A DNA stretch of 35,856 bases. Source: an uncultured Campylobacter sp. (GTDB taxonomy: Bacteria; Campylobacterota; Campylobacteria; Campylobacterales; Campylobacteraceae). Position numbers and translations under genes: made by a program. The notes under the pieces were generated by a model. It did not search any database and was not told where the DNA came from. It saw nothing but the letters and a program-made list of their open reading frames with translations. The DNA is taken from positions 1 through 35,856 of the forward strand of contig CAURMQ010000001.1 of the NCBI GenBank assembly GCA_963525765.1, in the 5' to 3' direction. Shown in pieces: positions 241-24,241 of the stretch. The number at the start of each line of letters is the position of its first letter. Position 1 is the stretch's first letter.

Positions 241-600
241 TAGCTAAAATTTCACAACAGACCTATCGGGGCGGAATTTCGTCTGTAAAATTTTAGCGCT
301 TAATTCTTTACTATGCAAAAATTGCTACTTAGCTTGCGTGGCGTAGAATTCCGTCGCGCCAAATTTTTCAATAAAATTCCATGCGAACTTAAATCGCAAA
401 ATTCATAGAAAAATTCCGTCTTTTTGCTACGAAATTTTATCTTTTTTTGCTACAAATTTTATAGCCTGCTATGCAATTTCATCGCCTAAATTTCGTTTTC
501 GAAATTCCTTAAATTAAATTTTGCGACCGCACTCCGCAACTCGCCGCAAAATTTGTCTTTTAAATTATCGTAAAATTTTACACCACGAAATTTTGCTTTC
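241..600. repeat. RAATTY-dense intergenic region
   Basis: About 16 hand-counted RAATTY hexamers (AAATTT/AAATTC/GAATTT/GAATTC) in about 360 bp, plus a short duplication TTTTTGCTAC-[G/-]AAATTTTAT near 421 and 444. Confidence 0.75.
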
Positions 601-1211: not shown

Positions 1212-2642
1212 TTGAAACATTTAATCTCTTGCCTAGAACCCTCGGCGAATCTGCATTTTAAAGAGGTTCTAGCGCATCTTAAAAAGCTTGATCCTGCTTG
1301 CGAGATTTGCGGAATTTTCGATGAAAAGCTGGGCTCGCCGATATACAAAAGCAGCGAATTTTCTGCGATGGGCTTTATAGAAATTCTGCCGCTAATTTTA
1401 AAAGCCAAGCGTGCGATAGCGCAGATGACGCGACTTGCGGCGGAGTGCGATCGCGTGCTACTCATCGACTCGCCCGCGTTTAATCTGCCGCTTGCTCGCG
1501 CGATCAAAGAAAGCGGCGCGCGCGCGGAAATTTCATATTATATCCTACCGCAGGTTTGGGCATGGAAGCCGCGCAGAGCGGAGAAACTGAAGGCGTTTTG
1601 CGACAATCTGCTCTCCATCTGGCCTTTTGAGGCGAAATTTTTCGGCGCGGATTGCGAGGGAGATAAAGGCACTGTGCCGCAAGAAGCGAAGAGCAAAGAC
1701 GCTGCGCCGAAAGAAGATGCCGAACAAAGCGAGCAAAATTTTACCTCGCCAAATTCTGCGCCTAATTTCGCGAATCAAAATTCTAGGGTGCGAAATTCTA
1801 CGCAGCAAAGCTCCGCAACGCAAAATTCCGGTAATTTTTGCGAGCGAAATTCCGAGACCGAAAATTCTAATGAGCCAAACCTCACCGGACAGGGCTTCTC
1901 GCAGAATTTCATATCGCAAAATTCTGATAAACATAGCTCCTCGCAGAATTTCACGCAGCAAAGCTCCGACAAGCCGTGCTCCGCGCAGAATTCTGCGGCT
2001 TTAAATTTAGAGGCTCAGAGCCGTGCTCGCTATTTTTTCGTGGGGCATCCGCTGCTTGATGAGATAAAATTCCAAAAATCAAGCTACGAAAAACAGGGCA
2101 AGATCGCCTTTATGCCGGGCTCGCGCAGGGCTGAAATTTCAAGATTGATGCCGATTTTTAGAGTCCTTGCGCCTAAATTTGAAAATAGCGAGCGAGTCTT
2201 AATAATCCCACCGCATCTGATGGATCAAAGAGATGAAATTTACGGGCCTCTGGACGGCTTTAGCATCGCAAACGATACTCCTGCCACGCTTAAGGATTGC
2301 GATTTTGCCTTCATCTGCTCGGGCACGGCGACGCTTGAAGCGGCGCTCATCGGCACTCCATTCGTGCTGTGCTACAAGGCTCGTGCGTTTGACGTTTGGC
2401 TCGCGCGAAAGCTCGTAAAGCTAAAGCACGTGGGGCTTGCGAATATTATTTTTGATTTTTTGGGCGAGGAGCCGCTTCACGAGGAGCTTTTGCAATCCGA
2501 GGTAAGCGCGCAAAACCTACTCGCCGCATACGATCGCTGCGACGCTGCGAAATTTAAACTTGCGAGCGAAAAGCTGCGAGATTATCTGAAATTCGGTTCC
2601 AGCGAAAACGTGGCAAAAATTTTAACGCAGCCTGCGAGCTAA
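1212..2642 (+). CDS. lpxB: Lipid-A-disaccharide synthase with a ~125-aa low-complexity in-frame insertion
   Basis: Motifs EPSAN, MGFIE, IDSPAFN, YILPQVWAWK, VGHPLLD, MPGSRRAEI, SGTATLE, VGLANI; TTG start. Confidence 0.95.
   Translation: MKHLISCLEPSANLHFKEVLAHLKKLDPACEICGIFDEKLGSPIYKSSEFSAMGFIEILPLILKAKRAIAQMTRLAAECDRVLLIDSPAFNLPLARAIKESGARAEISYYILPQVWAWKPRRAEKLKAFCDNLLSIWPFEAKFFGADCEGDKGTVPQEAKSKDAAPKEDAEQSEQNFTSPNSAPNFANQNSRVRNSTQQSSATQNSGNFCERNSETENSNEPNLTGQGFSQNFISQNSDKHSSSQNFTQQSSDKPCSAQNSAALNLEAQSRARYFFVGHPLLDEIKFQKSSYEKQGKIAFMPGSRRAEISRLMPIFRVLAPKFENSERVLIIPPHLMDQRDEIYGPLDGFSIANDTPATLKDCDFAFICSGTATLEAALIGTPFVLCYKARAFDVWLARKLVKLKHVGLANIIFDFLGEEPLHEELLQSEVSAQNLLAAYDRCDAAKFKLASEKLRDYLKFGSSENVAKILTQPAS
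1736..2008 (+). repeat. In-frame RAATTY/QN[S/F] repeat array inside lpxB
   Basis: RAATTY at 1736, 1751, 1778, 1793, 1823, 1847, 1862, 1904, 1919, 1946, 1988 and 2003; all spacings are multiples of 3. Confidence 0.85.
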
Positions 2643-7840: not shown

Positions 7841-7887
7841 GTCGCAAATTTTAAAATTCTAAATTTTTGCAATTTAAAATTTTAAAG

Positions 7888-7948
7888 AATTCTGCCTGCC
7901 GCTAGGCGGGCGGAATTTAATTCGTTTGCCCGCTGCTATGCGGGCAGA
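7888..7948. terminator. Two GC-rich hairpins after pilT (probable terminator region)
   Basis: AATTCTGCCTGCC-GCTA-GGCGGGCGGAATT (with G:U pairs), followed by TTGCCCGC-TGCTAT-GCGGGCAG. Confidence 0.55.
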
Positions 7949-8074
7949 TACTACCTTAAATTTCGTTTTAAAATATCTATAATTTCGATTAAAATTCCAC
8001 GTCCGATTAATCTTATAAAATTTCTATTTATTTAATCTTTAATAAACAAAATTTCAACTAAATTTCAGGGGAGG

Positions 8075-8347: not shown

Positions 8348-8929
8348 ATGAAATACGAGATAATCGACGTCCATACCGCGCTAGAGATTGTTTTTAAAAA
8401 TTTTAAATGGGCGCTACTTATTGGAATTTTGCTGTTGCCGTTAGGCGTGGGTGCCGTGATTTTAGTGCTTTTGCCGTTTCAAAGCATTTTGATCTACAAC
8501 AAAAACAAAAGATACCTGATCGATATGCAAACGGGCAAAATCACTTTCCCTAGAAGCGATGTTGAAAATAGCATTGTAGCCGTTTTGCTCTGCGCGCCGT
8601 ATTGGAATTTAATGCGCAGCAGAACCGTCACGGCAGATCAAATCGAGGATATGCGCTTAGAGAAAAAAGAGGTAAAAAGCGCAAATATTTTTAAAATTTT
8701 CCTAGCGGTGATTAAATTTTTTAGGATGAGCTCCAAAAATGCCAAAACAGCTAGATTGGGGCGGCGCATTAATGATATCCAAACAAGATATTATCTCTAC
8801 GTCTTTGGAAGCTTCGGCTCGACGGGACTATACTTTTATGACAAGCAAAAGCGCGACGAGGTACGTAGCGCCATACGAGAATGCGTGCTTAAATTTAGCG
8901 CCAAAAATATAGATAGGAATTTATTCTGA
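8348..8929 (+). CDS. Hypothetical membrane protein
   Basis: 193 aa with an N-terminal hydrophobic hairpin (WALLIGILLLPLGVGAVILVLLPF); stop codon lies 1 nt before the next ATG. Confidence 0.7.
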   Translation: MKYEIIDVHTALEIVFKNFKWALLIGILLLPLGVGAVILVLLPFQSILIYNKNKRYLIDMQTGKITFPRSDVENSIVAVLLCAPYWNLMRSRTVTADQIEDMRLEKKEVKSANIFKIFLAVIKFFRMSSKNAKTARLGRRINDIQTRYYLYVFGSFGSTGLYFYDKQKRDEVRSAIRECVLKFSAKNIDRNLF

Positions 8930-8930
8930 G

Positions 8931-10136
8931 ATGATAATTATAAATCGAATGTTTTCGGGCGGCTATTTGAACGAGAGCTTGGGGCACGAAATCATCAATC
9001 TTTTTAAGGCAGACAACGGCAGGCACTACATCTACGTAAATCCTTACGGCACGATAAACGAGGATGCGAAGGACGCACACAAAGTCCTTTTAGTGCGTGC
9101 CATCTCGAAACATTGTTTTGAAATTTTAGCTTGCGCTAGCGAGTTAAAACTGCTTTTGAGCGATGAACTTTTTGCTAGCGGCAGAAAGCGTGGCGCTAAA
9201 GAGGAGCTTAAAAGACAATCTGAAATGATTGAAGCACAAAATATCGCTTACGGCGGTGTGCTTCTAAACGAGCTATTTGAAAGCGAAAACGATAGCCCCA
9301 ATGCGGCGTATATAACATTTGAGACGTCGAATTTTAAAAAACCAAAATTTAAATTTTACATCGTTGATGATGAGAAACTGATAGACGAAACGCATTTTTT
9401 AGTGCCATTTAAATTTTCCTCGCAATCTTTAAAGCAATATGTCCAGGGCGAAAGCGCGCTGGATAAAATTTTCGCGCCCGAGCTTTGGCAAGAGAACGAT
9501 ACTACGAAGCGGATCGGGCTAAATGAAATTTTAAATTTCAAAGCTAAAGAGCAAAATATCTTAGAGATAATCGGCAAGATGGACGATGAGTTAAGCTTTT
9601 CAAATTGGATAGTCTATTATTTGCGAAACGATGCGCAGCTATTTTTAAAATTTGCGAGCGAAATTTTACGGCTAAACATAAGCGAGGACGCGCAAATTTT
9701 AAGAGAATACAAAAATATAGATATTTTCATAAAAGATCAAAACCACGCAATCGTCATCGAAAATAAGATCAAATCCGGTATCAACGGGATAAGACACGAT
9801 TTACAGAGCGATGCTGTGCGCTCTCAGCTAGATAAATACTCAAAGATTGCCGATCAGCAGGATTCAGGCGGCAGAGCAAAGTGCTTTTTGCTTCTACCTG
9901 ATTATAGCTATGCAGATAAAGAGTTAGCGAAATTTGATGAGTATGGACGCTATTCGGTCATAAGATACAGCGCGCTTTTGAGATTTTTTGAAGCTTGCGA
10001 ATGCGGCTTGAAATTCTACGACGAATTCAAAGACGCGCTGCGAAAGCATGCGAGCGAATACAAAAAGGATTTTTATGAAATCATGGGAGAGCGGCTAATT
10101 ATGACGATTTTACGGCATAGAGGCTTATCGTCGTAA
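8931..10136 (+). CDS. PD-(D/E)XK nuclease family protein
   Basis: C-terminal half carries E..FSNWI..YL...REYKNIDIFI.......IENKI...QL.KY, typical of PDDEXK_4-like nucleases; AT-richer than the flanking genes. Confidence 0.75.
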   Translation: MIIINRMFSGGYLNESLGHEIINLFKADNGRHYIYVNPYGTINEDAKDAHKVLLVRAISKHCFEILACASELKLLLSDELFASGRKRGAKEELKRQSEMIEAQNIAYGGVLLNELFESENDSPNAAYITFETSNFKKPKFKFYIVDDEKLIDETHFLVPFKFSSQSLKQYVQGESALDKIFAPELWQENDTTKRIGLNEILNFKAKEQNILEIIGKMDDELSFSNWIVYYLRNDAQLFLKFASEILRLNISEDAQILREYKNIDIFIKDQNHAIVIENKIKSGINGIRHDLQSDAVRSQLDKYSKIADQQDSGGRAKCFLLLPDYSYADKELAKFDEYGRYSVIRYSALLRFFEACECGLKFYDEFKDALRKHASEYKKDFYEIMGERLIMTILRHRGLSS

Positions 10137-12473: not shown

Positions 12474-13787
12474 ATGGATTATTCAAGCTTAGCCCGCAAA
12501 TACGGCACCCCTTTATACGTTTACGATTTTAACGAGATACAAAAGAATTTCATAGCGCTCAAAGAGGCCTTCGTAGCGCGCAAGTCGCTCGTTTGCTTCG
12601 CGATTAAGGCAAGCTCTAATTTAAGCATTTTAAAATTTCTATCGGATCTGGGCAGCGGCTTTGACTGCGTCAGCATAGGTGAGCTGCGCCGCGCTCTGTA
12701 TATCGGCGCAAAGAGCTATAAGATCATATTCTCTGGCGTCGGTAAGCAAGATGGCGAGCTCGAGTTTGCGCTAAAGTCGGACATCTTGCTAATAAATTTA
12801 GAAAGCGAGGCCGAGATGCTGCGCCTCGAGCAAATCGCGCAAAATCTAAATAAGCCCGCTCGCATCAGCATCCGCGTAAATCCGAACGTTGATGCTAAGA
12901 CCCACCCCTACATCTCTACGGGGCTAAATGAGAATAAATTCGGCGTCAGCATCGAGACCGCGCGCAAGATGTATATCTACGCCAAAAAGAGCAAATTTTT
13001 AAATCCCGTCGGTATCCACTTTCACATCGGCAGCCAGCTTACGGACATTTCTCCGATCTGCGACGCGGCAAAGATCGTAAGCGATCTGTTGCGCGAGCTG
13101 CGAGCCCTTGAGGTCGATATAAAATTTTTCGACGTGGGCGGCGGCATCGGCATCCGCTACGAGGATGAAAAACAGATCGTGCTCTACGACTACGCGCAAG
13201 GGATTTTAAAGAGCCTAAGCGGTCTAGATGTCACGATCGTGTGCGAGCCGGGGCGCTTCATCACGGGAGCAGCGGGCGTCTTCCTTACTCGCGTGCTTTA
13301 TGAAAAACAAAACTGCGGCAAGCGCTTCGTCATCGTTGACGGCGCGATGAACGATCTCATACGCCCGAGTCTCTACGGCGCGCACCACGCCATCGAGATC
13401 GTTGGCGCTTCGGAGGGTATAAATTTAAACGAGCCCGATGCGAGCGAAGTAAATTTAGGCGGCAGAGGCTCGGATCAAATAAACGGTTCGTGTGCAGATC
13501 AAAAAAATTTGAGCGGCGCAAATTTAGCCGCAGCGAGCCTCTGCGACGTCGTGGGGCCGATCTGCGAAAGTGGCGATTTTTTGGCCAAAGGCGTTAGCCT
13601 GCCTAGCCTGCAAAGCGGCAATCTGCTCGCGATCAAAAGCGCCGGCGCTTACGGCTTTTCGATGTCGAGCAACTACAACACCCGCTGCCGCGCCGCCGAG
13701 GTCGCGGTTTACGACGGACAGGACCGCCTGATTAGAAAGCGCGAGAGCTTTGATGATCTAATCGCGCTCGAAAAGGATCTCGTATGA
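12474..13787 (+). CDS. lysA: Diaminopimelate decarboxylase with a ~40-aa in-frame insertion
   Basis: GTPLYVYD, FAIKA, HPYISTG...KFG, HFHIGSQ, EPGR, RPSLYGA, VVGPICESGD, GAYGFSMSSNYN. Confidence 0.95.
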   Translation: MDYSSLARKYGTPLYVYDFNEIQKNFIALKEAFVARKSLVCFAIKASSNLSILKFLSDLGSGFDCVSIGELRRALYIGAKSYKIIFSGVGKQDGELEFALKSDILLINLESEAEMLRLEQIAQNLNKPARISIRVNPNVDAKTHPYISTGLNENKFGVSIETARKMYIYAKKSKFLNPVGIHFHIGSQLTDISPICDAAKIVSDLLRELRALEVDIKFFDVGGGIGIRYEDEKQIVLYDYAQGILKSLSGLDVTIVCEPGRFITGAAGVFLTRVLYEKQNCGKRFVIVDGAMNDLIRPSLYGAHHAIEIVGASEGINLNEPDASEVNLGGRGSDQINGSCADQKNLSGANLAAASLCDVVGPICESGDFLAKGVSLPSLQSGNLLAIKSAGAYGFSMSSNYNTRCRAAEVAVYDGQDRLIRKRESFDDLIALEKDLV

Positions 13788-14221
13788 TCCGCGCGGCGAG
13801 CCGTCCAAAACGGGGCGCGATCTTAAATTTCAAATCCGAACGCGCAGCGGCTTTAAATTTTAACGCAGTAGCAAGCACGGTCTTAAATTTTAAACGCACC
13901 GCCGATTTAAATTCTAAGCCTGAACGCGCCGCCGCTTTAAATTTCAAATCCGAACGAAATGCGCCTCTAAATTTAACGCCAGAACGAAGCCCCGTTTTAA
14001 ATTTTAATCGCGGCTCTTTAAATTTTAGATCCCGCTGCGACGAATTTTATCGCGCCTTCTTAGCGCGCGGAAGCTACGGCGCAGTAATTGCAAGCGATGA
14101 AATTTTAAGTTCGCGCGGTAAGAATTTCAAAGCACAAAGCAGCAAGAGCGGCGGCATGAAATTTCTAAAACCGAAATTTAGGGGCGAGCAAAAGGAGGGT
14201 TGTGATGCAAAATATCGATGA
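13784..14221 (+). CDS. Possible repeat-derived ORF (LNF decapeptide repeats) bridging lysA and pheA
   Basis: 145 aa; ATGA overlap with the lysA stop and end overlapping the pheA start; low-complexity content. Protein function is unsupported. Confidence 0.35.
   Translation: MIRAASRPKRGAILNFKSERAAALNFNAVASTVLNFKRTADLNSKPERAAALNFKSERNAPLNLTPERSPVLNFNRGSLNFRSRCDEFYRAFLARGSYGAVIASDEILSSRGKNFKAQSSKSGGMKFLKPKFRGEQKEGCDAKYR
13823..14025. repeat. Degenerate ~30-bp tandem array with a TTAAATTT core
   Basis: Cores at 13823, 13853, 13883, 13907, 13937, 13967, 13997 and 14018 (spacings 30, 30, 24, 30, 30, 30, 21). Confidence 0.85.
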
Positions 14222-23554: not shown

Positions 23555-23794
23555 ATGAGTTTTAAGAGATTTTTTGCAGTAGCGCTTGCGGTGGGCGCTT
23601 TCGCTTCGGTGAGCGCAGAGGCTAGCGCTGCTGGGGATTTTTGTATCAAAAACGGCGGCGAGCTGATCGTCCGCAAAGACGGCAATGGCGTGGACTACAC
23701 CGTTTGTAAGCTGCCTGACGGTACTATGATCGACGCTGAAGAATTTTATAAAACAGGCGGCGATTTGAGTAAATTTAAGAGCGTAAATCGATAG
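23555..23794 (+). CDS. Secreted DUF333-type small protein
   Basis: Signal peptide followed by A..FC.K.GG.L.......G.....C.LPDG; RBS AAAGGA. Confidence 0.75.
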   Translation: MSFKRFFAVALAVGAFASVSAEASAAGDFCIKNGGELIVRKDGNGVDYTVCKLPDGTMIDAEEFYKTGGDLSKFKSVNR

Positions 23795-24241
23795 AATTTT
23801 ATCGCTTGCGAGATTTGCAGCAGCGAAATTCCATAAAATTCTGCGTCAAAATTCCTCTTTAAAATTTAGATGAATTCTAACTAGCAAGCATTAGCGCAAG
23901 TAAATTATTTGGGTACCTCATACAAAGTGAGGGCAGCAGAGTGATGGAAGGAATTCAATTATCCAAATGTCAACGATGTGCGGAGATTTTGCTCCAGTAA
24001 GGCGCTGAAAGCAGTGGCTATGCAAGACAGAAACATTTTAAGTGATTTGACGCAACGTAGACAACCTGCTAGATTACTCGATTACGATGCAGATTTTTTT
24101 GGATATGTGATAAGCGTTTGCGCCCATACTTCCTGAACTTAAATTTTAGCCGTTCGTGGATGTCGCTTGCTTCCTTTTTTTTGAAAGGCTCAAATTTTAG
24201 TCGTTTGTGAGCGCTCATTCACTTCCTTTGCCCGCGTAAAT

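Follow-up and report, generated by a model that had tools for sequence, protein, structure and literature searches.

Intragenic variable-number tandem repeats (VNTRs), or coding minisatellites, show length polymorphism in steps of their unit, which arises by slippage or unequal exchange. The element described here resembles them in part. It is a loop in the lipid-A-disaccharide synthase LpxB of an uncultured member of the Campylobacter gracilis group, an oral Campylobacter lineage, and it is largely made up of spaced copies of the hexamer RAATTY. The gene lies on the stretch of DNA analysed here, positions 1 to 35,856 of contig CAURMQ010000001.1 in assembly GCA_963525765.1, which is called the window in what follows. 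The RAATTY arrays share unit-step lengths with VNTRs, but they are highly degenerate, reside in cytoplasmic core enzymes and not in surface proteins, and use one motif throughout the genome.

The motif itself is known from C. jejuni, in which DNA uptake is reported to need RAATTY sites methylated by CtsM (PMC10046745, PMC8468864, PMC8627207, 10.1101/2024.09.10.611283), and whose RAATTY methylase carries the annotation D12 N6-adenine methylase (PMC4294202). A RAATTY methylase gene is described as kept in all C. fetus isolates studied (PMC13436318). As in the C. jejuni system, the same motif is found here at a similar density per kilobase, together with a D12 methylase gene and ComEC (PMC10046745, PMC8627207, PMC8468864). 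Unlike in C. jejuni, the lineage has 47% GC, the motif stands about 8-fold above expectation, dense arrays and coding insertions occur, and the system is read from its genes.

The DNA uptake sequences (DUS) of Neisseria and the uptake signal sequences (USS) of Pasteurellaceae are comparable in being self-DNA motifs that are kept beyond codon needs, are frame-biased, lie in permissive regions and reshape the proteome (PMC2817400, PMC2397512). They are described as spreading by mutation and homologous recombination, unlike copy-and-insert elements (PMC2817400). However, USS and DUS are 9-10-mers present at under 1 per kb, whereas RAATTY is a 6-bp palindrome present at about 10 per kb, and the gracilis-group motif also multiplies by local duplication, adding up to about 200 residues to enzymes. 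The cyanobacterial HIP1 motif is likewise a hyper-abundant palindrome with orphan methylases, conserved in all frames and outside genes, and its cause is debated (PMC4390886, PMC5861425). A ratchet model for HIP1 invokes MutS/MutL repair, while MutL was not found in five of five genomes tested; no report of coding arrays built by HIP1 was found in the parts of the HIP1 literature consulted (PMC4390886, PMC5861425). Rickettsia palindromic elements (RPEs), finally, also make in-frame additions to unrelated metabolic enzymes, but they form families of about 150 bp with a conserved peptide, whereas all that the RAATTY insertions have in common is the hexamer with a few bases beside it, and their growth is local (PMC10969869).

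The influence of USS, DUS and HIP1 on proteomes is known to act through substitutions; in the present case, essential enzymes appear to have gained whole segments from such a motif. The lpxB loop is ordinary when taken alone, yet it marks a process that is lineage-wide and for which we found no earlier description. The literature search covered titles and the beginnings of abstracts, so that prior notice is possible.

The LpxB insertion

The lpxB product passes the TIGR00215 model with 202.5 bits against a cut-off of 190.25. The core of an AlphaFold2 model, built from a 23-row alignment, matches E. coli LpxB, and its top fold hits are 5w8x, 5w8n and 5w8s (GT-B fold). The insertion (coordinates in Table 1) is flanked by the anchors FEAKFFG (aa 139-145) and YFFVGHPLLD (from aa 274) and is placed by the model between a helix (140-144) and a strand (273-276). 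In alignments of distant LpxB proteins these anchors are only a few residues apart, as the initial annotation of this DNA had assumed. The predicted local distance difference test score is below 50 across aa 142-270, and a Pfam search with the insert alone returned no family.

Two layers can be distinguished. The initial annotation saw about 125 residues built from RAATTY; the insertion is real, with 128 residues, but only 96 of these are motif-built, and the acidic stretch of aa 145-175 is older and free of sites. The 12 sites of the RAATTY layer start at 1736, 1751, 1778, 1793, 1823, 1847, 1862, 1904, 1919, 1946, 1988 and 2003, with spacings of 15, 27, 15, 30, 24, 15, 42, 15, 27, 42 and 15 nt. 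All are in codon phase 2 and read N-S, N-F or N-L; recomputation reproduced the number, phase and spacings exactly. The other 13 RAATTY sites in or touching lpxB are divided 6/6/1 over phases 0/1/2. Chance probabilities, calculated post hoc, are 6.6e-5 for the site density of the insertion and 5.6e-6 for its single phase. An internal 42-nt duplication is present as well, in degenerate form, with 30 of 42 bases the same. Tandem Repeats Finder (score 30) reported no array over 1647-2030.

Alternative frames lie open over the insertion at 1545-1961 on the reverse strand (138 aa) and at 1627-2004 on the forward strand (125 aa); they are probably shadows of a stop-poor, phase-locked array. An array of N-glycosylation sequons was also considered. 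The sequon has the pattern D/E-X-N-X-S/T, and LpxB works on the cytoplasmic side of the membrane. The insert holds one sequon only, EQNFT at aa 174, and with a single sequon in a cytoplasmic-side enzyme this candidate is not supported.

LpxB frames outside the gracilis group measure 341-402 aa. Among 56 related lpxB loci, 54 cover the region, and these are polymorphic in insert length: 49 have an acidic insertion of 37-49 aa without a site, and five have 104-115 aa with 9 sites. The long form, including the source genome, is thus found in 6 of 55 genomes. The five others (G005, G019, G022, G063 and G072; such labels denote comparison genomes, G000 being the source genome) have a homologous RAATTY layer of 72-82 aa, and long LpxB proteins, of 445-476 aa, also make up six protein clusters with 51 members. 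Blocks of 30 nt and 42 nt, each as long as a site-to-site distance, distinguish the long alleles from one another. On a tree of the lpxB flanks the long alleles are scattered, requiring 5 changes (103 of 500 shuffles are equally low; a single clade is not rejected, with an approximately unbiased p of 0.128), and recombination among lineages is the likely cause.

Motif abundance and insertions in other genes

The source genome is assembled in 218 contigs, is 86.6% complete and has 47% GC. It contains 18,687 RAATTY sites, or 10.25/kb. In the G044 sample the ratio of observed to expected sites is 8.4, an about 8-fold over-representation. The commonest hexamer of the source genome is AAATTT (12,562), with AAATTC at 2765, GAATTT at 2714 and GAATTC at 646, while the near-motifs CAATTT and TAATTT number 359 and 771 and AAAAAA, at 2541, is five-fold under AAATTT. 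The site types fit independent half-sites with A in about 82% at the R position. Coding sites are evenly distributed over the phases (3579/3717/3674 in 1354 open reading frames, ORFs).

Eighty-seven of these 1354 ORFs carry at least five phase-2 sites within 300 nt. The 21 that were scanned from this list include ArgRS, TrpF, ThrC, TrmA, two Mur ligases, MnmE, an RsmD-like protein, PriA, SelA and RpiB; the comparison for ArgRS is one of frame lengths. With a stricter cluster rule, applied to 1347 ORFs, 42, 9 and 6 of them have clusters in phases 2, 0 and 1, the within-ORF null maxima being 23, 10 and 6. The count of same-phase clusters was dropped as a proxy for insertions, since the AT-rich genome G012 shows such clusters in ordinary protein sequence. 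With 10.8 sites/kb and ordinary proteins rich in E-I-L and K-I-L, G012 seems to represent motif gain by substitution without insertions.

A set of insertions defined by alignment avoids the circularity of picking by motif. For two AT-rich relatives, 400-kb samples supplied orthologues to which genes of the source genome were aligned, and 35 insertions were found in 32 of 301 genes, with 18.8 sites/kb against 7.2 in the aligned core and site phases 0/1/2 of 26/35/127. The outgroups' own gaps (22 in 14 genes) have 6.9 sites/kb; the insertion list and this gap list both include some poorly aligned regions. Under a strict filter, insertions occur in 10/174, 13/176, 8/110, 5/92, 10/119 and 7/94 genes in comparisons with six genome samples, whose gene sets overlap, at 21-28 sites/kb. 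About 6-8% of the conserved genes of the source genome carry motif-rich insertions, and the LpxB loop is not special but one of dozens of such cases in this genome. Insert peptides vary from gene to gene, and some insertions keep to phase 0 (E-F) or to phase 1 (E-I-L/K-I-L); because these encode other peptides, the repeat unit must be the DNA and not the peptide.

The phenomenon extends beyond the genus. G223, from another genus of the family and with 45% GC, has four insertions in 92 genes where the source genome has none; three are motif-rich, and overall they have 25.8 sites/kb with phases 4/3/19. In G230, one weak case was seen among 110 genes. Insertions build up in only some GC-rich lineages, and as a guess a weaker deletion bias may be at work there.

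Similar material occurs outside genes. The source genome has 175 arrays of at least 8 sites outside ORFs (34 kb), and 553 of their 1708 spacings are multiples of 3, without phase lock. Per 100 kb sampled, arrays number 8.8 in G044, 5.9 in G223, 2.7 in G048, 2.3 in G230, 1.5 in both G043 and G012, and 0 in G233.

Lengthening and shortening of the arrays

The trmA insert is present in 30 of 30 genomes, with 66-198 aa that vary mostly in 5-aa steps (15/30/45/60 nt), and the priA insert in 27 of 30, with 94-254 aa. Of 142 trmA indel keys, 82 agree with the site-to-site register (18.8 expected), and of 44 priA keys 18 do (4.8 expected); the keys come from pairwise alignments and cannot be counted as independent events, and the null model is a rough one. 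TrmA (G000:C46:554-2185) has the clearest 15-nt-step array and is a better model locus than lpxB. PriA (G000:C24:10966-13617) has two large insertions, its frames measuring 772-955 aa in the group against about 610-630 in most outgroups.

In 234 gene pairs compared between the source genome and G044, coding indels number 38, and 35 of them are multiples of three. The flanks of sites point to local duplication: direct likeness of at least 70% is seen in 1.4% of comparisons within arrays against 0.24% between arrays for phase 2, in 3.3% against 0.19% for phases 0/1, and in 1.2% against 0.37% in non-coding DNA, which amounts to a 6-fold enrichment in phase 2 and a 17-fold one in phases 0/1. Inverted likeness shows no such rise in coding arrays; in non-coding arrays it is roughly twofold. 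Sites in coding clusters most often lie 15 nt apart, those outside genes 8 nt. A 10-11-bp A-tract period is absent from the spacing tables, which peak at 8, 15-16 and 24-25 outside genes and at 15 inside, and extended per-site palindromes show no excess over shuffled flanks. As a pattern in the sequences, direct duplication and deletion in register with the sites appears to drive array length.

Conservation of the motif and of the peptide

Conservation is stronger for the DNA motif than for the amino acids. Asparagine is coded by AAT in 88-91% of site contexts, against about 48% elsewhere in core genes. Synonymous site-breaking changes between the source genome and G044 stand at 0.16 of control overall, an about six-fold depletion; by residue context the values are 0.10 for N, 0.02 for I, 0.12 for K and 0.90 for E. 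Site gains stand at 1.32 of control, and a frequency test for gain had 6 usable columns only. In non-coding DNA, 6.7% of sites differ between both genomes, against 12-21% for five control hexamer classes. Among about 50 alleles of eight genes, site-breaking variants occur in 8 of 76 columns, against 67 of 221 control columns.

The mnmE insert gives the same picture. Parsing of 26 out of 30 loci gave 25 distinct alleles, in which 2 of 1500 cells of the AATT core are minor variants, whereas at the Y position (Ser to Phe/Leu) 20 of 375 cells are changed, of which 1 breaks the site. Codon positions 1, 2 and 3 outside sites vary by 4.1, 5.3 and 5.2%. The MnmE frame measures 594 aa in most gracilis-group genomes, 492-519 aa in a few and 567 aa in the sister genome G024. 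The ratio of nonsynonymous to synonymous polymorphism (pN/pS) is 0.35 in the lpxB RAATTY layer, 0.39 in its acidic layer and 0.61 in the mnmE insert, against 0.12 and 0.07 in the lpxB and mnmE cores. These ratios indicate that selection on the insert peptides is relaxed, though not strictly neutral.

Methylase, uptake and repair genes

The source genome has one D12-class adenine methylase match (PF02086), an ORF of 373 aa at G000:C92:3056-4171 on the reverse strand, for which an NCBIfam search gave no family. Of 200 genomes of the family, 191 contain a match to it at E<=1e-30; among 16 genomes of other families, 4 have matches, all of them weak. From this class and distribution it is probably of the CtsM type. 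Within the gracilis group there are two divergent types of D12 methylase, about 93% and 66% identical to that of the source genome, and G019, G006 and G063 carry both. The initial annotation called the repeat a methylation motif; this holds for Campylobacter, and in the present genome methylation is suggested by the methylase gene only. The ComEC family PF03772 was detected in five of five genomes tested. MutL (PF01119) was found in none of five genomes, three of which are single-contig, with controls detected in 11 of 14 cases; MutS was not searched for.

Explanation and alternatives

We consider the LpxB loop to be a degenerate coding minisatellite whose persistent core is RAATTY (mostly AAATTT and AAATTC), a motif that Campylobacter methylates, and assign this reading a probability of roughly two in three. 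The loop would then be tolerated baggage and not a new functional domain. The starting point is a motif, about 8-fold over-represented, that resists loss at the DNA level. Judged by the sequence pattern, short direct duplications and deletions in site register change array length. Within genes, only stop-free events that are multiples of three, in surface loops, would survive, and every copy would therefore keep the phase of the founder; phase 2, with its polar N-S, N-F and N-L, would be tolerated most often. Spacers would then randomise by substitution while sites persist, leaving a motif-built, weakly constrained, disordered peptide. A CtsM-type methylase system may keep the sites, either through uptake preference or through methylation-linked protection or repair, and alleles of differing length would be shuffled among lineages by recombination. 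The loops are presumably translated, and it is presumably the methylase or uptake that makes the sites persist. The in-frame growth in a tolerant, disordered loop that was proposed at the outset is supported by the low predicted confidence of the model over the insert and by its polymorphic length.

Several observations weigh against this picture. Same-phase clusters exceed the within-ORF null in phase 2 alone, those in phases 0 and 1 lying within its maxima, and in G012 they occur in 9 of 299 ORFs in ordinary sequence. In two genomes, G048 and G233, the methylase gene is present and sites reach 9-12/kb, yet 119 and 94 genes contain no insertions, so that the motif system is not sufficient. 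The specificity of the methylase and an uptake preference in the gracilis group are extrapolated from C. jejuni. Exact AATT microhomology at indel ends between the source genome and G044 is seen in 0 of 20 cases, although with 0.45 expected the power is low, and the lpxB flank tree fails to polarise gain and loss of the RAATTY layer. Uniform weak selection or drive predicts a loss of 0.30 and a gain of 2.38, whereas 0.16 and 1.32 are observed, and a simple uniform uptake drive therefore does not fit; methylation-linked protection, or a mixture of strongly held and neutral sites, fits better. The G-containing half-site is barely protected, as is clear from the E context, and the pN/pS of the lpxB layer is far under 1, which leaves some constraint at the protein level.

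A stronger version of this reading is tentative, and we would bet against it at present. It could be imagined that an orphan methylase system writes protein: methylated RAATTY would set the register of duplication and be shielded from decay independently of MutL, and so act as a selfish seed. Through it, at least two GC-rich Campylobacter lineages would independently have seen their intergenic DNA inflated and some 6-8% of conserved enzymes extended by disordered loops.

Generic slippage in an AAATTT-rich genome, in which the motif is simply the commonest short repeat, a cold spot or an A-tract, and methylation and uptake play no part, is unlikely but is the most serious of the competing accounts. 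AAATTT makes up 12,562 of the 18,687 sites and GAATTC only 646, suppressed loss combined with near-background gain is what a cold spot should produce, non-coding DNA has other AT-rich hexamers that are likewise conserved above background per base, and the acidic layer and some other insertions are free of sites. Against this, the specificity tracks RAATTY, as GAATTT (2714) and AAATTC (2765) far outnumber CAATTT (359) and TAATTT (771), with AAAAAA at 2541, and either purine is freely used at the R position and either pyrimidine at Y. Moreover, five of six lpxB loci from other families, none of which has a close methylase match, have 0.8-5.0 sites/kb, the sixth (29% GC) reaching 8.3. Selection of the loops as protein, whether as disordered N/S/Q-rich spacers, as interaction or degradation tags or as sequons, with the motif as a by-product of codons, is improbable. 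The dominance of phase 2, pN/pS values of 0.35-0.61 and the nearly fixed length of the mnmE insert would suit it. However, the bias to AAT in site contexts is at the DNA level, non-coding DNA is also full of this material, and each of the three phases is represented among the insertions, with peptides that are unrelated to one another. The lpxB RAATTY layer is missing from 49 of 54 relatives, and the insert has a single sequon in an enzyme of the cytoplasmic side.

The initial annotation had likened the insertion to RPEs, and a small mobile element of RPE type, or resembling a miniature inverted-repeat transposable element, could have inserted in frame and decayed. In-frame sites in unrelated housekeeping genes recall what is described for RPEs (PMC10969869), and the single strand folds better than dinucleotide shuffles (z=-3.1) and than controls with sites kept and spacers shuffled (-4.2). 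Block permutation gives z=-0.7, which would ascribe the fold to unit content, and coding arrays have no inverted enrichment. The best non-self match of the lpxB layer in the source genome (86.6% complete) is 29 nt and none spans the insert, and lengths change in unit steps. All gracilis-group alleles carry the acidic layer, and none offers a clean empty site at which to look for a target-site duplication. With no dispersed full-length copy, no conserved peptide and apparently no fold beyond unit content, the likeness is not supported, and an element of this kind is very improbable. Hardly any weight is left for an assembly artefact. The assembly is fragmented (218 contigs), but homologous, distinct long alleles exist in five other assemblies and in the six protein clusters with their 51 members, and the 42-nt copies differ at 12 positions. 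Four sequence runs, all of them contigs, speak neither for nor against it: three bridge the layer in the form of short alleles, and the layer itself is covered by none.

If the loop is a minisatellite of this kind, it illustrates a possible way in which bacteria acquire new disordered protein segments. The lineage is also suited to a direct test of an old question: are hyper-abundant motifs linked to methylases maintained by uptake drive, by selection or by biased repair? Its inserts are weakly constrained, dozens of alleles are available and MutL was not found in its genomes. The loops also explain the oddly long proteins of the gracilis group and, being highly polymorphic, could serve as typing markers.

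Further features of the window

Table 1. Location of the lpxB gene, the parts of its insertion and other RAATTY-rich features in the window
Feature	Position	Strand	Remarks
lpxB, lipid-A-disaccharide synthase	1212..2642	+	476 aa, TTG start; sole full-length match in assembly
Whole lineage-specific insertion, aa 146-273	1647..2030	+	128 aa; predicted disordered
Older acidic E/K/D/A layer, aa 145-175	1644..1736	+	no RAATTY; in all gracilis-group alleles examined, in variants of 37-49 aa
RAATTY layer, aa 176-271	1737..2024	+	96 aa; 12 phase-2 sites from 1736 to 2008
30-nt site-to-site unit	1793..1822	+	present in G000, G005, G063; absent from G019, G022, G072
Two degenerate 42-nt direct copies (1899-1940, 1941-1982)	1899..1982	+	30/42 bases same, 12 differ; other five long alleles 42 nt shorter here
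38-aa insertion in lysA-like decarboxylase gene	13413..13526	+	4 sites, all phase 2
Non-coding RAATTY array	346..593	.	13 chained sites, not phase-locked
Non-coding RAATTY array	7846..8065	.	11 sites, 8-nt tandem unit

Further dense non-coding RAATTY arrays are found at 13788-14201 and 23741-23877, and the one near 13823-13956 has a degenerate 30-nt tandem unit. Between a gene for a PilT-like ATPase and the L25 gene, at 8348-10136, there are two genes, the second of which has a PD-(D/E)XK nuclease domain; both have possibly been acquired.

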